Assembly (NCBI GenBank): GCA_031459625.1 | Contig: JAVKIH010000003.1 | Location: 65,199 to 129,198 of the forward strand | Direction of reading: 5' to 3' | DNA length: 64,000 nucleotides | DNA from: Candidatus Geohabitans tengchongensis | GTDB lineage: Bacteria > Sysuimicrobiota > Sysuimicrobiia > Sysuimicrobiales > Humicultoraceae | Part shown: one piece after another, positions 23,525 to 57,340 of the stretch | Layout: each line of letters opens with the position of its first letter | Numbering within the stretch: position 1 is the first letter of the stretch | Notes under the pieces: model-generated | Database searches by the model: none | The model's input: the letters and a program-made list of their open reading frames with translations, nothing else | Told to the model about the DNA's origin: nothing | Translations under genes and position numbers: made by a program

Positions 23525-23645
23525 TTCACCGCCGGCCCACCACCCGGGTGACGGATGATGGGCCGGCCCGGGCCAGCATCCCAGGTCAGGCGGCAATTGA
23601 CCGCCGCCGGCCCGGCGCCTAGAGTCAGGGTGACAGCACCGAAGG

Positions 23646-23820
23646 CTCGCAGCCCTTCGGGGCAGGGTGAGGCTTCACCCCTTGCGGGCGAGGCCAATTC
23701 CCGATCGGCGGTGACAGCCCGTGAGGTCCTGCCGGCTGTGGCGCAGGCCGGGCCGGTGGGACCGTGGCTCGGTGGAATTCCGAGGCCGACGGTACAGTCC
23801 GTATGAGGCAGGGCTGCGAG
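23646..23820 (+). ncRNA. FMN-riboswitch-like (RFN) element, variant
   Basis: 11-bp P1 ctcgcagccct/agggctgcgag; CTTCGGGGCAGGGTGA, AATTCCCGA, GGTGACAGCCC, GGTGGAATTCC, GCCGACGGTACAGTCCG blocks in RFN order. Confidence 0.9.
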
Positions 23821-23841
23821 ACCAGGCGCCTGCATGCCCCG

Positions 23842-23874
23842 GAGACGCCCGCGTTCGGGCGTCTCTCCTTTTCC
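23842..23874 (+). terminator. Expression-platform hairpin upstream of pdxS
   Basis: gagacgccc/gggcgtctc stem followed by tccttttcc. Confidence 0.6.
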
Positions 23875-23898
23875 AGGCGTCGGGGGGAGGGATGTGTG

Positions 23899-24801
23899 AT
23901 GGTGGTGGACGCCGCCCCGGTGCGGCCGGGGACGGAGCGGGTGAAGCGGGGCCTCGCCCAGATGCTCAAGGGCGGGGTGATCATGGACGTCACGACCGCC
24001 GAGCAGGCCCAGATCGCCGAGGAGGCGGGCGCGGTGGCGGTGATGGCGCTCGAACGGGTCCCCGCCGACATCCGGGCCGAAGGCGGCGTGGCGCGCATGG
24101 CCGACCCGCGGCGCATCCGGGAGATCATGGAGGCGGTGACCATCCCCGTGATGGCCAAGGTGCGCATCGGCCACTTCGTCGAGGCCCAGATCCTGGAGGC
24201 GCTGGGCGTCGACTTCATCGACGAGAGCGAGGTGCTGACGCCGGCCGACGAGCACCACCACATCGACAAGCGGGCGTTCACGGTCCCCTTCGTCTGCGGG
24301 GCACGCGACCTGGGCGAGGCCCTGCGCCGCATCGGGGAGGGCGCGGCGATGATCCGCACCAAGGGTGAGGCGGGCTCGGGCAACGTGGTGGAGGCCGTCC
24401 GCCACATGCGCCTGGTGCTGGGCGGCATCCGGCGCCTGCAGGCCCTGGCCGACGAGGAGCTGATGACGGCGGCGAAGGAGCTCGGCGCCCCCTACGCGCT
24501 GGTCCTGGAGACCCGGCAGCTCGGCCGCCTCCCCGTGGTGAACTTCGCCGCCGGCGGCATCGCCACGCCCGCCGACGCCGCCCTGATGATGCAGCTCGGC
24601 GCCGACGGCGTCTTCGTCGGCTCCGGGATCTTCAAGTCCGCGGACCCCCGCCGCCGCGCCCGGGCCATCGTCGACGCGGTCGCGCACTACCGGGAGCCGG
24701 GGGTGCTCGCCGAGGTCTCGGCCGGGCTGGGCGAGCCCATGCGCGGGCTCGACCTGCGCCGCCTGCCCGAAGCGGAGCTGCTGCAGGTGCGGGGAGTGTG
24801 A
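23899..24801 (+). CDS. pdxS: Pyridoxal 5'-phosphate synthase lyase subunit
   Basis: [43 protein letters not shown]. Confidence 0.98.
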
Positions 24802-25382
24802 GGACGGTGCGCGTGGGCATCCTGGCGCTGCAGGGGGACGTCGCCGAACACGCCGCGGTGGTGCGGGCGTGCGGCGCCGAGAACCGGGAGGTGCGCCGGC
24901 CGGAAGACCTGGCGGGCGTGGAAGCGCTCATCATCCCCGGCGGCGAGTCCACCACCATCGGACGGCTGATGGCCCGGGTCGGCCTCGACGAGGCCATCCG
25001 CGAGCGGGTCGAGCAGGGGCTGCCAGTGCTGGGGACGTGTGCGGGGGCCATCCTCCTGGCCCGCGAGGCCCGCGGGGGCCGGCCTCCGCTGCTGGAGGTG
25101 ATGGACATCGCGGTGGCCCGCAACGCCTACGGTCGGCAGCGGGAGAGCTTCGAGGCGGACATCCACGTCCCGCCGCTCGGCTCCGCGCCGCTGCGGGTGG
25201 CGTTCATCCGGGCGCCGGTCATCGAGGCGGTGGGGCCGGCGGTCCAGGTGCTGGCCTCCTTTGGAGGGCAGCCGGTGCTGGTGCGCCAGGACCGCCTGCT
25301 GGCGGCCACCTTCCACCCCGAGGTGCTGGGGGAGACCGCCCTGCACCGGTACTTCCTCGAGACCGTCGTGCGGGCGGCCTGA
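24798..25382 (+). CDS. pdxT: Pyridoxal 5'-phosphate synthase glutaminase subunit
   Basis: GILALQG, PGGESTT, GTCAG, RNAYGRQ, FHPE. Confidence 0.98.
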
Positions 25383-25393
25383 ACGTCCAGGCC

Positions 25394-26226
<833 letters not shown>

Positions 26227-26230
<4 letters not shown>

Positions 26231-26904
26231 GGCGCCGCACCTCCGCGGCGGGCCAGGGCGGCGTCCACCTGTGCCCGCAGCGCCCGCGCGGCTGCGGTGA
26301 TGTCCGCCTGGCCGACGACGGCGCGGATCACCGCCACGCCCGCCGCCCCGGCGGTGATGACCGCCGCCGCAGTGCCGGCATCGATCCCGCCGATGGCCAC
26401 CACGGGGATGCGCACCGCCTGCACCACCCGGCGCAGTCCCTCGAGGCCCACCACCGGGCCGGCGTCGGGCTTCGTCCGGGTGGGGAAGATCGGCCCCAGC
26501 GAGACATAGGTCGCCCCCTCCCGCTCCGCCTGTACCGCCTCCGCCACCGTGTCCACGGACCGCCCGATGACGCGTTCGGGACCCAGGTGGGCCCGCGCCC
26601 GGGCCAGGTCACCGTCGGCCTGGCCGAGGTGCACCCCATCGGCGTCACAGGCGCTGGCGACCTCGGGTCGGTCGTTCACCAGGAAGAGCACCCCGGCCTC
26701 CCGGGTGAGGCGCCGCAGCCGCCGGCCGATGGCCACGAGGGCATCGGGCGGCAGGGACTTGTCCCGCAACTGGACGGCCGTGGCTCCGCCGGCGATGGCC
26801 TGCGCCACCTGCTCCTCGTGGGAGCACCCGGCGAGGGCCCGGTCGGTAATCACGTAGAGCCTCAGGTCCACAGCCAGCCCGGTCCGCCCCATCCCGGTCT
26901 GCAC
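26227..26904 (-). CDS. thiE: Thiamine-phosphate synthase (start uncertain)
   Basis: LYVITD, VQLRDK, VNDR, GVHLGQ, PTRTK, VAIGGI. Confidence 0.95.
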
Positions 26905-26908
26905 GAAC

Positions 26909-27742
26909 TCACCCGCGATCGGTCAGACCTGCCGCCTCGCGGACCGCCGCGCCGTCGCGCACGCGCCCGGGATCGAGGCCAGCCAGCGCGTCCAGCAGGG
27001 CGGGACGGAAGCTCCCCGGTCCGCGTGCCCCCCTGGCGGCCTCCTCCGCGGCCAGCCCGAAAGCCACCAGCCCAGCCAGGGTGGCCACCACCGCGTCCGG
27101 CTCCACGGCGGCCACGGCGGCGACCACCGCCGTCACCATGTCCCCGCCCCCGGTGATGCGGGTGAGGAGCGGATGGCCGTGGACGACCGTCCAGGCCTGC
27201 GCCCCATCGCTCACGACGTCGTGCTCCCCGGTGGCGGCGACGACCGCCGCGCTCCGGTGCGCCAGCCGGCGTGCCGCTTCCAGCGGGTCGACCGGCGTCT
27301 CCCCGGATTCCACCCCGACCATGGTCGCCTCGAGACCGGCGAGCGTGGCGATCTCGGCCCGGTTGCCCCGGACGACCCGCACCCGCACCGCCTCCAACAG
27401 CCGGGCTGCGGCCGCGCGGCGGAAGCGGGTGGCGCCGCACCCCACCGGGTCGAGGATCACGGGGACGTCGTGGCGGTTGGCCGCCCGCCCGGCCGCCAGC
27501 AGCACGGCGAGCCGTTCCCGGGTGGGGGTGCCCAAGTTGAGGACCAGGGCCGCGGCCTGCGCCGCCACCTCCTCGACCTCCTCGCGCGCCTGGGCCATCA
27601 CCGGCCGGGCGCCGCAGGCCAGGGTGACGTCCGCGACGTCGCCGGCCGTGACGACGTTCGTCAGGTGGTGGACCAGGGGGCGCCGCCGGCGCACAGCGGC
27701 CCAGGCCTCGGCCAGCCGCGTCCCCGAGACTACCGTGGCCAC
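26909..27742 (-). CDS. thiM: Hydroxyethylthiazole kinase
   Basis: PLVHHLTNVV, GARPVMA, NLGT, LDPVG, RGNRAEI; occupies only the 3' part of the long listed ORF. Confidence 0.93.
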   Translation of the reverse strand: MATVVSGTRLAEAWAAVRRRRPLVHHLTNVVTAGDVADVTLACGARPVMAQAREEVEEVAAQAAALVLNLGTPTRERLAVLLAAGRAANRHDVPVILDPVGCGATRFRRAAAARLLEAVRVRVVRGNRAEIATLAGLEATMVGVESGETPVDPLEAARRLAHRSAAVVAATGEHDVVSDGAQAWTVVHGHPLLTRITGGGDMVTAVVAAVAAVEPDAVVATLAGLVAFGLAAEEAARGARGPGSFRPALLDALAGLDPGRVRDGAAVREAAGLTDRG

Positions 27743-29124
27743 ACGCCGCGCAGGAGCGCGTACGCCACCAGGGCGGCCAGGAAGCCCGGCACCGAGCCGC
27801 CCAGCCAGGGGACGACATCCCGCAGCGGGAAGGGCAACCCCACCGCCGTGAAGGCCGCGCGCAGCGCCCCCTCCCACCCCGGGAGGGCGGTGGGGGCGAT
27901 CCACTGGTAGACGAGGAAGCCCACGGCCCAGGCCACCAGACCGGGCAGGGAGACGCCGCGCCCCGCGCCCTCGGCGCGCCCCGCGCCGTCCGCAGCCGCC
28001 TGCGACAGGGGCGCGCGGGCTCGGCCGCCCGGCACGAAGTAGTCGGCCGCCAGTACGCCGAACAGCGGGACGAAGACGGCGCCGATGAGGAAGAGGAAGG
28101 CCTCGTAGGCGACCAGGTTCACGTTCACCGCCACGACGAAGCACAGCGTCCCCACGAGGACGATGAGGAGGCGCTGGGGGGCGCGCGGCAGGATGTTCTG
28201 CAGGCTGAGCGCCGTGGAGTAGATGTTGGCGAAGGCGTTGTCGGTCTCGTCCACGAGCAGCAGGAGGAGGGCCAGCGCGCCACCGGCGACGCTCAGCACC
28301 GCCGGGATCACCTCCTGGGTCCGCAGCGCCAGCACGAAGAGGGCCCCGAGCGCGTAGAACCACACGTTGGCCAGGAAGTAGCCCAGGTACGTCCCCCAGA
28401 ACGCCGCCGCCGGGCGCTGCGCGAAGCGGTTGTAGTCGGCCACGAGCGGCATCCAGGAGACCGGCATGGCCACCACCAGGTCCACGCCCAGCCAGAAGGG
28501 CAGCGCGCCCGTCCCCGGCCGGGCCAGCAAGGCCCGCAGGTCGTGGTGGGTGAGCAGGTAGCCGGTCAGGTAGAGGGTGGTGGCGTAGACGAGCCAGATG
28601 GCAAAGCGCTCCAGCCACCGGCGCACGACCACCAGCGGGCCGCCCAGCGCCAGCAGGGTGGCGATGGCGGCGAAGAGGAGCGCCCACAGCGCGGGGCGGT
28701 GCAGGCCAGTGAGCTGGCGGCTGATCGCATCGGCGGCCTGCGCCATGATGTAGACCTCGAAGGCCCCCCACCCGACCAGCTGGACCACGTTCAACACCGT
28801 GGGCAGGTAGGACCCGCGCAGCCCGAGCACCGGGCGCAGGAGGACCATCGTGGGGAGCGCGGTGCGGCTGCCGACGAGGCCGGTGAGGGCGAGCAGCAGG
28901 TTCCCGATGAGCGTGCCCAGCACGATGGCGCCCAGCGCCGCCCGGGGGCTCATCCCTGGCACCAGCAGGCCGCCCGCGGCCAGGACCAGCAGGCCGACGC
29001 CCAGGCTCGACCACAGGGCGAAGAAGTCGAGGAAACCCAGGCGGCGGTACGCCGCCGGGACCGGCTCGATGCCCCACGCCGGCGGGACCTGGAGGCGGGG
29101 ACGAGGCAGGGTGAGGACGCCCAC
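27730..29124 (-). CDS. NCS1/cytosine-permease family transporter, CytX-like (probable HMP uptake)
   Basis: WGIEPVP, SWMPLVADY motifs, about 12 TM segments; inside the thi operon. Confidence 0.85.
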   Translation of the reverse strand: MGVLTLPRPRLQVPPAWGIEPVPAAYRRLGFLDFFALWSSLGVGLLVLAAGGLLVPGMSPRAALGAIVLGTLIGNLLLALTGLVGSRTALPTMVLLRPVLGLRGSYLPTVLNVVQLVGWGAFEVYIMAQAADAISRQLTGLHRPALWALLFAAIATLLALGGPLVVVRRWLERFAIWLVYATTLYLTGYLLTHHDLRALLARPGTGALPFWLGVDLVVAMPVSWMPLVADYNRFAQRPAAAFWGTYLGYFLANVWFYALGALFVLALRTQEVIPAVLSVAGGALALLLLLVDETDNAFANIYSTALSLQNILPRAPQRLLIVLVGTLCFVVAVNVNLVAYEAFLFLIGAVFVPLFGVLAADYFVPGGRARAPLSQAAADGAGRAEGAGRGVSLPGLVAWAVGFLVYQWIAPTALPGWEGALRAAFTAVGLPFPLRDVVPWLGGSVPGFLAALVAYALLRGVWPR

Positions 29125-29162
29125 GTCAAACCGTCCCCGGGTCGGCTGCCCCCACCACAGCC

Positions 29163-29663
29163 TCACCCCCGCGCTCCGGTGGGCGCGGTCACGCCCGCGC
29201 GCTCCAGGGCCTTGAGCAGGAGCGTCCCCACCGCCGCGCCGGGGATCGAGCTGGCCAGGAAGGCCACCATGAGCGCCCCGAGCGGCAGCGCCTTGCCCAT
29301 GAAGGCGGGCGCCACGATGAGGGCGCCGACGGTGGCGCCCACGGGACCGGTGCCGAGCGGCTCGAGCAGCCCCACCCACGGCCGGCGCCACAGGCGGTAG
29401 GCGAAGCCGACGACGAGCGCCCCGGCCATCCCCCCGGGAAAGGCGAGCGGCGTGCCCACGCCCAGGGCGTTGCGCACGATGGCGGCCACCGTGGCGGCCA
29501 GGGCCGCGTACCACGGCCCCAGGGTGATGCCGGCCACCACGTTCACCATGTGTTGCCAGGGCAGGACCTTGGCGCCGGCGACCGGGATGGCACCGGGGAA
29601 GAACGAGAGGACCACCGGCAGCGCCGCGAAGAGCGCCGCCAGGACCAGCGGTCGCGCCTGCAT
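29163..29663 (-). CDS. thiW: ECF S-component ThiW (thiazole uptake)
   Basis: PWQHMVNV, LGPWY, RNALGVGTPLAFPG, EPLGTG motifs. Confidence 0.9.
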   Translation of the reverse strand: MQARPLVLAALFAALPVVLSFFPGAIPVAGAKVLPWQHMVNVVAGITLGPWYAALAATVAAIVRNALGVGTPLAFPGGMAGALVVGFAYRLWRRPWVGLLEPLGTGPVGATVGALIVAPAFMGKALPLGALMVAFLASSIPGAAVGTLLLKALERAGVTAPTGARG

Positions 29664-29689
29664 CGAGCATCCCCCCTCACGGGGGAAGC

Positions 29690-29720
29690 AAAAGCCGCCA
29701 GTCCACGCGCTACTGGCGGC
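29690..29720 (-). terminator. Intrinsic terminator of the TPP riboswitch
   Basis: Minus strand gccgccagt...actggcggc followed by tttt. Confidence 0.8.
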
Positions 29721-29722
29721 CT

Positions 29723-29820
29723 GCCTCTCCCCACGCCAGCATTACCTGGATCGGGTGCAACGGGTCGGCGTTGTCATCGGAACGCCCTCTCAGCCCGCCT
29801 CGTCGAGCTCCCCGGATGGC
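29723..29820 (-). ncRNA. TPP riboswitch
   Basis: Minus strand GGGAG...CTGAGA...ACCCGT...ACCCGATCCAGGTAATGCTGGCGTGGGGA; upstream of thi operon. Confidence 0.95.
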
Positions 29821-29907
29821 TATGCAGTTGTCCCGTCCTTACGGTAGCAGTGCGCTGCGCTCCTGGCAATCCTCCCGCCCCGGGACGCGCACGGGTCCGC
29901 GCCCGCG

Positions 29908-30900
29908 TCAGCCCTCGACGTCGCGCGGGGCCGCGACCTCGTAGTGGATGTTCCGGGCCTCGAAGAAGTTGACGATTTCCGGCACGTCCACCTCCGTGGC
30001 CATCCAGGGCGCAGGGTTGGGGGTGTGGAACGAGGCCGGCAGGCCCAGCTCCTCCAGCCGGCGGTCGGTGATGTACTCCACATAGGCGTTCAGAACCTCC
30101 GCGCTGACCCCCAGGACAGGCCGCTGGAGCAGCGCCCGGTTGTAGTCCCGTTCGAGGTCCACCGCCGTCAGGATGAGGTGCAGGAGCTCCCGACCCAGCC
30201 CGGGCGTCATCAGGTCGGGGTCCTGGGCGAGGAGTTCCCCGATCAGGTGGATGCCGAAGCTCAGGTGCAGGCTCTCGTCCTTGAGGGTCCAGTCCACGAT
30301 GGTGGCGAGCCCACGGAGGAGGTTGCGGCGACGGAAGGTGTAGGCGAACAGGAACCCGCCGTAGAAGAAGACGCCCTCCAGGATGATGTAGTAGCCCACC
30401 AGGTTCCGCAGGAAGCTGCGCCGGTGGGAGACCCGGGACAAATCCAGCGGGTCCAGCATGGTCCGGGACAGGTCCACCAGGAACTCCTCCTTGGCCCGGA
30501 CGGCCGGCTCGTTCCGGTGGGCGTTGAAGACCCGTTCGCGCTCTACGGGAAGGGTCTTGAGCACGTACTCGAAGGCCATGGTGTGGTTGGCCTCCTCCCA
30601 GATTTGCCGGGCCAGGTACAGACGCGCTTCGGGAGCGGTGACGTGGCGGTAGATGGCGAGGACGAGGTTGTGGGTCACCAGGGACTCCATGGGGTTGAAG
30701 AAGCCCAGGAGGAGCTCCACGGCGCGCTGTTCGTCCGGGGACAGACGGGTCTCCCAGTCGCGGACATCCTCGGCCAGGGGGACCTCCTCGGGAAACCAGG
30801 TGTTGCGCTTGCCCTGCTGGGCGTGCGCGTACGCCCAGGGGTAGCTGAGGGGCACGAGCTGGACAGGCTCGAGGGGATTCCCGCCAACCAGAGGCCGCAT
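29908..30900 (-). CDS. nrdB: Ribonucleotide reductase beta subunit, class Ic signature
   Basis: WFPEEV, FFNPME, EEANHTMAF, EGVFFYGGF, DESLH, NFFE. Confidence 0.93.
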   Translation of the reverse strand: MRPLVGGNPLEPVQLVPLSYPWAYAHAQQGKRNTWFPEEVPLAEDVRDWETRLSPDEQRAVELLLGFFNPMESLVTHNLVLAIYRHVTAPEARLYLARQIWEEANHTMAFEYVLKTLPVERERVFNAHRNEPAVRAKEEFLVDLSRTMLDPLDLSRVSHRRSFLRNLVGYYIILEGVFFYGGFLFAYTFRRRNLLRGLATIVDWTLKDESLHLSFGIHLIGELLAQDPDLMTPGLGRELLHLILTAVDLERDYNRALLQRPVLGVSAEVLNAYVEYITDRRLEELGLPASFHTPNPAPWMATEVDVPEIVNFFEARNIHYEVAAPRDVEG

Positions 30901-30911
30901 GGTCCACCTGC

Positions 30912-33260
30912 TCAGCCGGCACAGGACTCACAGCCCGGTGCGCAGCTGATCGCGTGTTCGGGAAGTTCCAGGTTCCAGCGGAGCCGCTCGCGGGCCTTGT
31001 TGACGTGGACGGTACTGGGCTCCGCGTACATGCGGGGAGCGGTGAACAGGTAGTAGGTGGACTTGAGGCCGGCCCGCCACGCTTCCAGGTACAGGCGCGC
31101 CATGGCGTCCAGGGAGCGATCCCGCACGAACAGGTTGCGGCTGACTCCCTGGTCCACCCACTTCTGGGCCAGGGCGGCGACCCGGACGAAGTCCTCGGGA
31201 GGGATCTGGTAAGCGGTGCGGTGAACGTGGCGCAGGGCCTGCGGGATCTGCTCGATGCGCTCCAGATCCCCCCGCTCCTCGACCAGCTGCGCGCGCACCC
31301 GATCCCACAGACCCAGCGACTGCAACTGCTCCACGAGCACGCGGTTGAATTCCAGGAACTTCCCGGACAGCGTCTGGCGGGCGAAGAGGTTCGCGTAGCA
31401 GGGATCGATGCCAGGGGTGGTCCCGGCGACCAGGCTGATGGTGGCGGTGGGCGCGATGGCGAGGACCGTCCCGTTCCGGATGCCCTGACGCACCCGGTGG
31501 CGGAGGGCGTCCCAGTGCAGACGCCCCGAGCGATCCACGACAGGTCCGCCACGGAGTTCGGCCAGCTCCTGAAGGGTGTCGATGGGCACCTCACCCCGGG
31601 CCCAGCGGCTGTCGGGGAACGAGGGGAAGGGCCCGCGTGCTGTGGCCAGCTGGCAGCTGGCCTCGATGGCGCAGAAGCTCAGGAACTCCACTGCGCGGTC
31701 GGTGCACTCGCAGGAGGCTTCGTCACCGTAGCGCATGCCCAGCCGTGCGAAGACCTCCGCGAGCCCCATCAGGCCCAGTCCCACGGGCCGGTGGCGCAGG
31801 TTCCCGCGGGATGCGCGTGCTGTGGGGTAGAGGTTCAGGTCGATCACGTTGTCCAGGCCCCGGATGGCGAGCCGCACGGTGCGGCGGAGGCGATGCCAAT
31901 CCAGCCCCCCGGAGGTCACGTGACGTGCCAGGTTGACGCTGGCGAGGTTGCACACAGCCATCTCTTCCTCGCTGGTCGGCAGGTGGATCTCGGTGCAGAG
32001 GTTGCTGGAGTGGATCACCCCCGGCAGCATGCTGCGTACGTTGCTGGCGTCCTTGAAGGCGACCCAGGGGTGGCTGGTCTCCTGCAGTGTGGCCAGGATC
32101 TCCCGGAACAGGGACCGGGCGCTCTCGACGCGGAATGCGCGCGGCGGGATGCGGCCGGCCCGGGCTTCCTCGATTCGGCAGCGGTAGGCCCGGGAGAAGG
32201 CCTCGCCCCACAGGTCGGGGAGCTCCGGCGTGTACGCAGGGTCGAAGAGGTACCACTCGTCGTCCCGCTCCACCCGGAGGAGGAATTCGTCCGGGACCCA
32301 CAGCGCGGTGTTCAGGCTGTGGGCCCGCAGGTACGGGTCGCCGGCGTTCCGCTTGAGGTCCAGGAAGGCCCGGATCTCGAGGTGCCAGGGCTCCAGGTAC
32401 ACGGCGAGGGTGCCGCGGCGACGCCCTCCCTGGCTGACGGCTCTGATGAGCGAGTCGAAGAGGTGGATGAAGGGAATGATGCCGGAGCTGGTGCCGTTGA
32501 TGCCGCGGACCGGAGCACCCGCGGCGCGCAGTTTGGTGACGGAGGCCCCGAGGCCGCCGGCGTACTTGGCGACCTTCCCGAACTCCTCGCAGGACTGGAG
32601 GATGTGGTGCATGCTGTCCAGCACATCCGACACGTAGCAGCTGCTGAGCTGGTGGTGAGGAGTGCCCGCGTTGAACAGGGTGGGGGTGCTGGGCAGATAG
32701 TCCAGTCGACTCATGGCGTCGTAGAAGGCCTCCGCCCATGTCGCGGGATCGCGCTCAACGAGGCTCATCCCCATGGCGACTCGCATGAACAGGAACTGCG
32801 GGACTTCCAGCAGCCTGCGGGTTTCGGGGTCCCGGACGAGGTACCGGTCCGCAAGGGTAGACACCCCGATCAGGGGCAGCCACAGGTCCCGTTCGGGCCG
32901 CAGGACCCGGCTCAGGCCCTGGAGGTCGAACCGGAGCAGTCGTTCGTCCAGGGCCCCGGCGCTCGCGGCCTGCGGCACGTACCGGCAGAAACCGGCGCGG
33001 TAGGCGTCAGGGTCGGGTTCGGGGGTCCCCAGGGCTTCCCGGTACAGCCGGCGCAGCATCAACCTTGCCGCGAGGCGCTCGTAACCGGGGTCCTGGTGAA
33101 TCCGGCCCTGGCTGGCCTGAAGCAGGGCCAGTTCGAGCTCACTTTCCCCGCTGCCGCGGACCGCGGGGTCGTCACGGAGGCTGTTCAGCAGACGCGTGCC
33201 GCCGGGGATTGGGCGGGCAAGCCGTTCCAGCCAGTGCGGCAAACCAACCAGGGTCGCCAC
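30912..33260 (-). CDS. nrdA: Ribonucleotide reductase alpha subunit
   Basis: PSTPTLFNAG, LSSC, SNLCTEI, VCNLASVNL, IAPTATIS, LKSTYY, C-terminal CESC; GGAGGT RBS before GTG 33260. Confidence 0.95.
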   Translation of the reverse strand: MATLVGLPHWLERLARPIPGGTRLLNSLRDDPAVRGSGESELELALLQASQGRIHQDPGYERLAARLMLRRLYREALGTPEPDPDAYRAGFCRYVPQAASAGALDERLLRFDLQGLSRVLRPERDLWLPLIGVSTLADRYLVRDPETRRLLEVPQFLFMRVAMGMSLVERDPATWAEAFYDAMSRLDYLPSTPTLFNAGTPHHQLSSCYVSDVLDSMHHILQSCEEFGKVAKYAGGLGASVTKLRAAGAPVRGINGTSSGIIPFIHLFDSLIRAVSQGGRRRGTLAVYLEPWHLEIRAFLDLKRNAGDPYLRAHSLNTALWVPDEFLLRVERDDEWYLFDPAYTPELPDLWGEAFSRAYRCRIEEARAGRIPPRAFRVESARSLFREILATLQETSHPWVAFKDASNVRSMLPGVIHSSNLCTEIHLPTSEEEMAVCNLASVNLARHVTSGGLDWHRLRRTVRLAIRGLDNVIDLNLYPTARASRGNLRHRPVGLGLMGLAEVFARLGMRYGDEASCECTDRAVEFLSFCAIEASCQLATARGPFPSFPDSRWARGEVPIDTLQELAELRGGPVVDRSGRLHWDALRHRVRQGIRNGTVLAIAPTATISLVAGTTPGIDPCYANLFARQTLSGKFLEFNRVLVEQLQSLGLWDRVRAQLVEERGDLERIEQIPQALRHVHRTAYQIPPEDFVRVAALAQKWVDQGVSRNLFVRDRSLDAMARLYLEAWRAGLKSTYYLFTAPRMYAEPSTVHVNKARERLRWNLELPEHAISCAPGCESCAG

Positions 33261-33383
33261 TTCGGCCACCTCCGTCCTCAACCACGGCCCTGCGTGCGAT
33301 AGACGGAGGCGGCCCCAGGACGGCCTGGGAACCTGTCTCCGCTCCGCCCCACTCCACGAGGGCACGCGGATTGTTCACAGGCC

Positions 33384-33552
33384 GGCAGGTCTTCGGACTC
33401 GGGTTCCTCCGGACCGGACGCCTTCCCGGGCCAGTTCGCCCAGTGGCCCCGATCTCCGATCCGTCCCCCTTACCGCGGCGGGCCCGTCCCGGACTCGCGC
33501 AGAGCAGGAGCGCTACACCGGGTTCCCTTTTCACCCCTTAGGGGACCGGCCT
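33384..33552 (-). ncRNA. Cobalamin riboswitch
   Basis: Minus strand AAAAGGGAACCCGGTG...GCCCGCCGCGGTA...GCCACTG...GGGAAGG...AGTCCGAAGACCTGCC (B12 box). Confidence 0.92.
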
Positions 33553-33553
33553 G

Positions 33554-33601
33554 CATCTACATCTTGTGTCCGCAGAGACTTCCTATCACAAGATGTAGCA
33601 C
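33554..33601. promoter_or_regulatory. Two tandem NrdR boxes
   Basis: catCTAcATcTTGtgt (33554-69) and tcaCAAgATgTAGcac (33586-601), 32 bp apart; TTGACA on the minus strand at 33604-09. Confidence 0.85.
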
Positions 33602-57260: not shown

Positions 57261-57340
57261 CCCGCGAAATGGCACCCCGCCTGCGAGGGCGGTCCGCAAA
57301 GCCACGGGACTGGTGACAGTCAGCCGGGCTGCCGAACGGG
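57261..57340 (+). ncRNA. c-di-GMP-I (GEMM-I) riboswitch
   Basis: CGAAAT-GGCA-ccgcct-GCGA-gggcgg-CGCAAAGCC-ACGG-gact..agtc-AGCCG-GGCTGCCGA; P1 cccg/cggg. Confidence 0.85.

Follow-up and report, generated by a model that had tools for sequence, protein, structure and literature searches.

The flavin mononucleotide (FMN) riboswitch, represented by Rfam family RF00050 and by the Fusobacterium nucleatum structure 3F2Q, stacks the ring of its ligand between A48 and the G98-A85 pair (bioRxiv 10.1101/389148). Published accounts of the FMN complex describe G10 and G11 as phosphate and ribityl contacts, G33 as helping to hold the phosphate-bound Mg2+, and A104 as moving together with A48/A49 on FMN binding. 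Pyridoxal phosphate (PLP) has been named as a near-universal coenzyme without a validated riboswitch, a gap that may reflect PLP not being RNA-derived (Kavita and Breaker 2022, PMC10043782). The protein regulator PdxR is PLP-controlled, judging from the titles of references in a review, and a review limits the characterised transporters of B6 to PdxU, PdxU2/HmpT (PF07155) and P5PA (PF13531). The subject here is an RNA with the fold of the FMN riboswitch that lies in front of pdxS and pdxT in a 64,000-nucleotide stretch of contig JAVKIH010000003.1 of Candidatus Geohabitans tengchongensis (referred to as the window; its numbering is used for all coordinates, including those of the initial annotation). 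The product of pdxST is PLP.

This RNA belongs to a conserved group of FMN-riboswitch variants that apparently has not been described before and that probably governs genes of vitamin B6 supply; since both the gene context and G98 fail, it is better not classed as an FMN riboswitch. A full-text literature search, beyond whose reach most subscription papers lie, found no description of an FMN-type RNA at pdxS or of a PLP riboswitch, and a prior description is possible. The initial annotation of the window had likewise known of no validated PLP riboswitch, which agrees with PMC10043782. Its reading of the RNA as a sensor of a B6 vitamer is supported, at the level of sequence, by the segregation of U98, by the PdxU/HmpT-family gene under the same RNA and by the replacement of PdxR.

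A conserved RNA in front of vitamin B6 genes

The Rfam covariance search of the window matched RF00050 at 23674-23818 with 57.9 bits (E 1.3e-12). This is below the gathering score of 66.2 bits, so the copy is missed by a gathering-level Rfam scan. Its score is depressed partly by insertions in L2 and P4, and the extra L2 hairpin leads Infernal to place P1 wrongly. Read from the sequence, P1 pairs 23646-23656 with 23810-23820 over 11 bp, and the six-stem fold (P1-P6) and the conserved blocks are present; the complete fold before pdxST proposed in the initial annotation is thereby confirmed, and both genes pass their NCBIfam cut-offs. A separate canonical FMN switch (98.4 bits) precedes ribD in the same genome. 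A third RF00050-type match of this genome (G000:C3, 23 bits) was rejected, its FMN core not being recognisable by eye.

Rfam searches covering 34 genomes of the family and 94 of the phylum gave a second tier of RF00050 matches, and some relatives of the window copy pass the RF00050 cut-off, reaching about 74 bits. An alignment of 36 distinct full-length variant copies (A2) was used to build a class model, R1. On the 94 phylum genomes R1 returned 38 matches of at least 132 bits, training copies among them, and the next match scored 113; behind the 38 stand pdxS (8), the S component of an energy-coupling factor transporter (14), a solute-binding protein (14) and a contig end (2). Four further copies with long insertions (G040, G044, G055, G056) score lower, carry U98 and lead an S component. 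Within the 94 genomes the variant is confined to families f1 and f3. Five genomes hold two variant copies each, and in four of them one copy leads pdxS and the other a transporter gene. A pattern scan of metagenomes found 39 loci, 30 of them distinct, leading an S component (17), pdxS (7), a binding protein (4), a truncated pdxS start (1) or a contig end (1). The unpublished genomes G016 and G024 supplied one canonical copy each, and G024 two variants as well; no conclusion depends on either.

Across the 36 copies, base pairing is present in 97.9% of 1332 cells and two-sided changes occur in 20 of 37 pairs, values matched in 0 of 500 shuffles; related genomes inflate both figures. The class thus shows the conserved structured 5' leader, covariation and expression platform by which riboswitches are generally recognised. 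An exact-pattern scan of 185,579 GTDB genomes gave 42 matches, comprising 36 variants of the clade, five chance matches without FMN fold and one Bacillota fragment, and R1 peaked at 96.7 bits on a 151-genome Bacillota sample, in which the top six matches all carry G98. Neither the GTDB scan nor the Bacillota sample yielded a member of the class from another phylum, though the scan does not show absence elsewhere because copies with an L6 insertion escape the pattern. The highest canonical R1 scores (up to 113 bits) belong to U30-type ribD copies of this phylum, and the variant may have originated by local duplication, with which the sequences are consistent.

Some individual copies are of interest in their own right. 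A long perfect L6 hairpin is found in some aptamers (L144, L145, L147, L229), and the near-identical insertion in L229, a G98 copy, suggests a mobile repeat or conversion between the RNA types. One decayed variant (L265:813-918 (-), genome G030) has lost the 5' half of the aptamer and keeps the 3' half and terminator before a binding-protein gene. At L173:1078-1148 (-) an intact variant RNA precedes a pdxS start that breaks off after some 24 codons, behind which comes an amino-acid permease gene. The permease made this locus a candidate exception to the gene association; it was rejected as such, the truncated pdxS start standing directly behind the RNA.

The nucleotides that mark the class were determined from 125 distinct parsed aptamers, which were found by Rfam or R1 and not by the U98 pattern, with identical sequences counted once; eight variant matches and a few loci that failed to parse are left out of this number. 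The 92 G98 copies lead ribD (62), ribU-like genes (27) or unassigned genes (3, two of them ribU-like by eye), whereas the 33 U98 copies lead pdxS (7), an S component of the PdxU/HmpT family (11), the binding protein (13) or a contig end (2). A rib gene is thus downstream of 89/92 G98 copies and of 0/33 U98 copies. U46 occurs in all 33 U98 copies and in none of the 92 G98 copies (86 C, 6 not parsed). On these counts U98 and U46 mark the variant class. C30U, the 6-nt J6/1 and the L2 hairpin were rejected as markers: all three occur in ribD copies, and being found in rib-associated copies of the lineage they are not diagnostic. C30U is present in 47/92 G98 (canonical-type) copies of the phylum and the 6-nt J6/1 in 11/92, and by this distribution both are lineage traits. 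A low Rfam score was also rejected as a marker, the low-scoring matches of family f5 being G98 copies before ribD or ribU-like genes.

The initial annotation had rested its case on five differences and had proposed that G98U and the short J6/1 might co-occur with pdxS. U98 and U46 prove class-specific, G63 is shared by 33 of 36 variants, and among the parsed copies U98 segregates with pdxS and the transporter-type genes and never with rib genes; C30U and the short J6/1 carry no weight. The extra L2 hairpin is present as described but is not distinctive. In a separate observation, G47 is replaced by U or A in some G98 copies, mostly before ribU-like genes in f3 (L211, L212, L214-L216, L219-L221, L223, L229; L017, L023), which may represent a second variant group.

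The exchange of the RNA with PdxR provides a further line of evidence. Families f4, f5 and f6 carry no variant RNA, and in them a MocR-type gene adjoins pdxS. All three representatives tested pass the NCBIfam equivalog cut-off for PdxR (461, 382 and 332 vs 320; NF052282), and the remaining PdxR genes were assigned by similarity. Among 43 pdxS loci, PdxR lies within 3.5 kb in 32 and the RNA is present in eight; none has both, and three have neither on the contig. The order Gfo-[RNA]-S-AIRS is seen in 13 of 14 variant loci examined in f3 (the other is without upstream sequence), and Gfo-[pdxR]-S-AIRS-pdxST in 5/5 loci of f5. In this one gene order the RNA takes the place of PdxR. Other, more distant MocR-like genes exist elsewhere in some variant-carrying genomes (G026, G028, G029). 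A divergent pdxS with 73% identity (L246, G010:C134) has neither RNA nor PdxR on its 2.6-kb contig.

The transporter genes under the RNA also point to vitamin B6. The S component has PF07155 as its best Pfam family, and a 22-sequence profile found a sole PDB match, 4HZU_S (E 2e-33), which is HmpT/PdxU2, a protein shown to bind pyridoxamine. The HmpT pocket residues Y120, N140 and Q143 are unchanged in the S component, and E or D stands at the position of E41. In 11 of 12 genomes of f5, which have no variant RNA, this S gene is found roughly 1 kb upstream of pdxS, sharing its contig and strand, in the order S-AIRS-pdxS-pdxT. The binding protein is PF13531-like by best Pfam family. Its identification with P5PA was rejected as unsupported beyond the family, the match being distant and short of the >65% identity criterion. 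It adds little to the B6 case because it is equally near to P5PA (PLP) and AfuA (sugar-phosphate) and the ring contacts are absent. No permease gene follows the binding-protein gene at L066, L070 and related loci, where it stands by itself with a tRNA gene behind it, and a paralog of about 58-61% identity is found in many of the same genomes.

An AIRS-family gene (ThiL/HypE/SelD-like; L108:883-1872 (-), L247:3541-4518, G000:C7:53794-54756) comes after the S component in f3, f5 and others and, in f5, also before pdxS, and it is counted in the B6 regulon for this reason. Since the pyridoxal kinase model TIGR00687 had no match in the 94 genomes, the AIRS-family protein is a candidate non-orthologous B6 kinase, with ThiD-type kinases as the alternative. 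In family f4 an HD/HDIG-domain gene between pdxR and pdxS (L254:3255-3821 (+); L255-L257) may encode a B6 phosphatase or related hydrolase. Because the RNA sits before B6 synthesis and uptake genes where relatives use a B6-sensing protein, it probably senses vitamin B6.

The proposed switch, its ligand and the alternatives

Nucleotide numbers follow F. nucleatum as given in PMC12219259, PMC6298564, PMC7573352 and bioRxiv 389148 and were transferred via the Rfam alignment; positions 46 and 63 were located by counting from numbered neighbours. In the window copy the phosphate-binding guanines G10 (23660), G11 (23661), G32 (23707), G62 (23766) and G84 (23788) and the adenosines A48 (23724), A85 (23789) and A99 (23803) are kept, and U30 (23705), U46, G63 and U98 (23802) are changed, all as initially annotated (Table 1). 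These eight kept positions are retained in every one of the 36 variant copies. Invariant in A2 are G9-G12, G32, G33, G47, A48, G62, G84, A85, G93 and A99, whereas U98 and A102 are invariant by the selection of the copies. In 34 of 36 variants an extra P1 pair beside a bulge leaves a 6-nt J6/1 without A104. Mapped onto the FMN complex, the substitutions ring the stacking site and phosphate recognition is untouched.

Quite likely the RNA is a riboswitch that turns transcription OFF on binding a phosphorylated B6 vitamer, of which PLP is the best candidate. The retention of all phosphate contacts favours PLP, pyridoxamine phosphate (PMP) or pyridoxine phosphate (PNP) over free vitamers, and the replacement of PdxR favours PLP, with PMP or PNP as possible ligands. 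In this proposal a duplicate of the FMN riboswitch of the lineage would have changed its ligand. The five guanines would still hold the ligand phosphate with Mg2+, and U98 (opposite A85), the G33-U46 wobble and G63, together with a remodelled J6/1-P1 junction, would shift the A48/A85 stacking platform so as to accommodate a single pyridine ring close to the phosphate. When ligand is bound, J1/2 would be held in the core, P1 and the terminator would form, and B6 synthesis and uptake genes would be shut off by transcription termination. In its absence, the 5' strand of P1 and J1/2 may pair with a C-rich segment at the base of the terminator, which would allow polymerase to read through. The ligand-bound state is taken as OFF because such logic suits feedback on both synthesis and uptake. 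A wider statement, that a PLP (or PMP) riboswitch arose from the FMN aptamer in recent times through changes confined to the second shell, displaced PdxR in two families, and has a regulon pointing to an uncharacterised B6 binding protein and an AIRS/ThiL-like possible B6 kinase, is rather likely.

On the 3' side of P1, the conserved features of the class are a short G-rich element, a C-rich one and a terminator hairpin ending in a U-rich tail, and each of the 36 copies has 5-11 bp of complementarity between the C-rich element and J1/2. In the window a 10-bp helix of 23655-23664 with 23835-23844 overlaps the terminator base. The terminator-like hairpin described in the initial annotation does fold, but a consensus terminator scanner made no call (0) for the stem 23841-23866 because its U run is only four long; the U runs of relatives are mostly longer. 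Public RNA runs consist of assembled contigs only, of flat depth, and such data cannot show termination.

Several observations weigh against a PLP-sensing switch. The eight positions in direct contact with FMN are all unchanged, unlike those of published specificity variants, and residual, even physiological, FMN binding is possible. The ring-to-phosphate distance is much shorter in PLP than in FMN. When transcripts are truncated ahead of the terminator 3' arm, the predicted antiterminator is the lowest-energy pairing in only 14 of 36, and it shows no covariation; it counts as a prediction for these reasons. In the S component, H84 and Q87 of HmpT are K and E, and PF07155 is named 'riboflavin transporter'. 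P5PA ranks first for the single binding-protein sequence and AfuA for the profile, both at low identity, and in the alignment with P5PA the phosphate residues S147/T149/S183 are kept but the ring contacts Y103 and H203 are not. The RNA occurs only in f1 and f3 and PdxR in f4-f6; the families are kin and not independent samples, so one or two events in evolution may account for the mutual exclusion of RNA and PdxR. Finally, U98 is found upstream of a PF12822 RibU-like gene in a Bacillota contig-end fragment (L088:2121-2156 (-)), and therefore U98 alone need not mean B6. This U98 is either a natural substitution or an assembly error.

The retained contacts and the L088 fragment, from a single Bacillota genome, also speak for an alternative in which FMN or another flavin phosphate is still the ligand and the B6 genes are coupled to flavin status, the substitutions only tuning how tightly the RNA binds or how it folds in a lineage that is GC-rich and partly thermophilic. 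U30 and U46 maintain wobble pairs, and several variant copies exceed the Rfam FMN cut-off, which likewise speaks for it. It is nevertheless unlikely: rib genes follow 89 of 92 G98 copies and none of the 33 U98 copies, canonical FMN switches are kept at ribD/ribU of the same genomes, the RNA stands at the place of PdxR in sister families, and G98 belongs to the platform under the flavin ring (bioRxiv 10.1101/389148). In addition, pdxH, the gene of the FMN-dependent B6 enzyme, was found in no variant-carrying genome, which takes away the obvious ground for putting B6 genes under flavin control.

A change of specificity towards some other phosphorylated ligand, such as hydroxymethylpyrimidine (HMP) phosphate, a PdxS substrate (ribose 5-phosphate or glyceraldehyde 3-phosphate) or a B6 breakdown product, also appears improbable. 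HmpT was originally proposed as an HMP carrier, thiT comes after S-AIRS in f3, and the binding protein, which resembles P5PA no more closely than it does AfuA, a sugar-phosphate binder, keeps only phosphate-binding residues. However, thiT has its own thiamine pyrophosphate (TPP) riboswitch in two of five f3 loci scanned (L108, L147), OFF control of synthesis and uptake would fit an end product and not a substrate, the conserved A48/A85/A99 stack suggests an aromatic ligand, and PdxR, which the RNA replaces, is itself described as PLP-controlled. It is very improbable that the RNA now binds no metabolite and serves as a constitutive attenuator or protein-binding leader fixing an expression level; the strongly conserved terminator and the thin evidence for an antiterminator would suit such a role, but single-stranded pocket nucleotides are invariant across at least 13 genera while the stems covary freely, as expected of a ligand pocket under selection. 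A decaying FMN-riboswitch relic captured before pdxS by chance, for which the window copy (lowest-scoring of the full-length variants at 132 bits and one base short near P1 relative to relatives) and the decayed copy of G030 might speak, is largely refuted and the least credible reading of all, given that 38 full-length matches share the substitutions, lead three types of gene and show compensatory changes, and the pairing and shuffle results above speak against the decay that the initial annotation had allowed for.

If the PLP-sensing proposal is true, a PLP aptamer on the FMN fold would fill the coenzyme gap, and a new coenzyme specificity would have arisen without a change of any direct-contact base, a route which scans of contact positions would miss. 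An RNA of about 140 nt is directly testable with commercial ligands and would give a genetically encoded B6 sensor. Its regulon nominates genes for B6 transport and salvage, an area that a recent review describes as poorly studied.

Features of the locus and its surroundings

The features of the pdxS leader are summarized in Table 1. The promoter-like site is a consensus match only, found once against 0.0 expected in 50 shuffles, and transcription may start near 23631-23633. A short stretch at the upstream edge of P1 (23637-23646) is common to most variant copies.

Table 1. Features of the pdxS leader and genes in the window.
Feature	Position	Strand	Basis or remark
Sigma70-type promoter-like site	23597..23625	+	-35 at 23597-23602, -10 at 23620-23625, spacer 17 nt
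Variant FMN-fold aptamer, P1 to P1	23646..23820	+	RF00050 57.9 bits; class model R1 132 bits (R1 training set included this copy); covariation, 36 copies
J1/2, carrying G9-G12; predicted antiterminator partner	23659..23664	+	G9-G12 in 36/36
L2-inserted hairpin	23671..23695	+	Also in canonical ribD copies of the lineage; 6/6 pairs with two-sided changes
U46 (canonical C)	23722	+	G33-C46 to G33-U46 wobble beside G47/A48; diagnostic
P4	23725..23763	+	Long in window copy, variable across class
G63 (canonical A)	23767	+	Adjoins phosphate contact G62; 33/36 copies, common but not universal
J6/1, beginning at U98	23802..23807	+	6 nt when extra P1 pair counted
C-rich conserved segment, predicted antiterminator	23835..23844	+	Complementary to 23655-23664 (P1 5' strand and J1/2)
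Intrinsic terminator-like hairpin, 11 bp, short U run	23841..23872 (stem 23841-23866)	+	Folding
pdxS, PLP synthase lyase subunit	23899..24801	+	NF003215 517 bits, cut-off 395; ribosome-binding site 23885-23891
pdxT, PLP synthase glutaminase subunit	24798..25382	+	TIGR03800 216 bits, cut-off 105.55

Other riboswitches are also present in the window. A TPP switch (29711-29824) stands over a convergent thiamine cluster at 25394-29824 (thiD, thiE-like, thiM-like, transporters), and a cobalamin switch (33367-33565) over ribonucleotide reductase-like genes at 30000-33565; the gene names in these clusters, thiD excepted, were read by eye. A c-di-GMP-I switch lies at 57261-57336.

Relation to known systems

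The variant resembles the canonical FMN riboswitch in its six-stem fold, all eight direct contacts and a terminator-type platform, and R1 in turn recognises canonical copies at scores of up to 113 bits. It differs in having U98, U46, mostly G63, an invariant G9 and an extra P1 pair with bulge (34/36), in lacking the canonical G98-A85 and G33-C46 pairs, and in never standing upstream of rib genes (0/33 U98 copies). FMN subtypes 1 and 2 of C. difficile/Atopobium (Atilho, Perkins and Breaker 2019, PMC6298564) are similarly derived from the FMN fold within the Rfam family, with new gene associations and with A48/A85/A99 kept. In those subtypes, however, phosphate/ribityl guanines are swapped to adenosines and the genes led are COG3601 or MFS/MATE efflux genes, whereas the present variant keeps all such guanines, leads B6 genes and is changed in the ring-side neighbourhood, the reverse of the C. 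difficile pattern.

PdxR, the MocR/GabR-type PLP-sensing transcription factor (NF052282), controls the same genes (pdxST and the S component) in sister families; it is a protein and not an RNA, and it is absent from the RNA-bearing pdxS loci. The specificity-switched riboswitches summarised in PMC6298564, namely 2'-deoxyguanosine (2'-dG) riboswitches from guanine and those for ppGpp and phosphoribosyl pyrophosphate (PRPP) from guanidine-I, are likewise rare and clade-limited and combine pocket changes with new gene contexts. Direct contacts change in those riboswitches, whereas in the variant described here only second-shell positions do.

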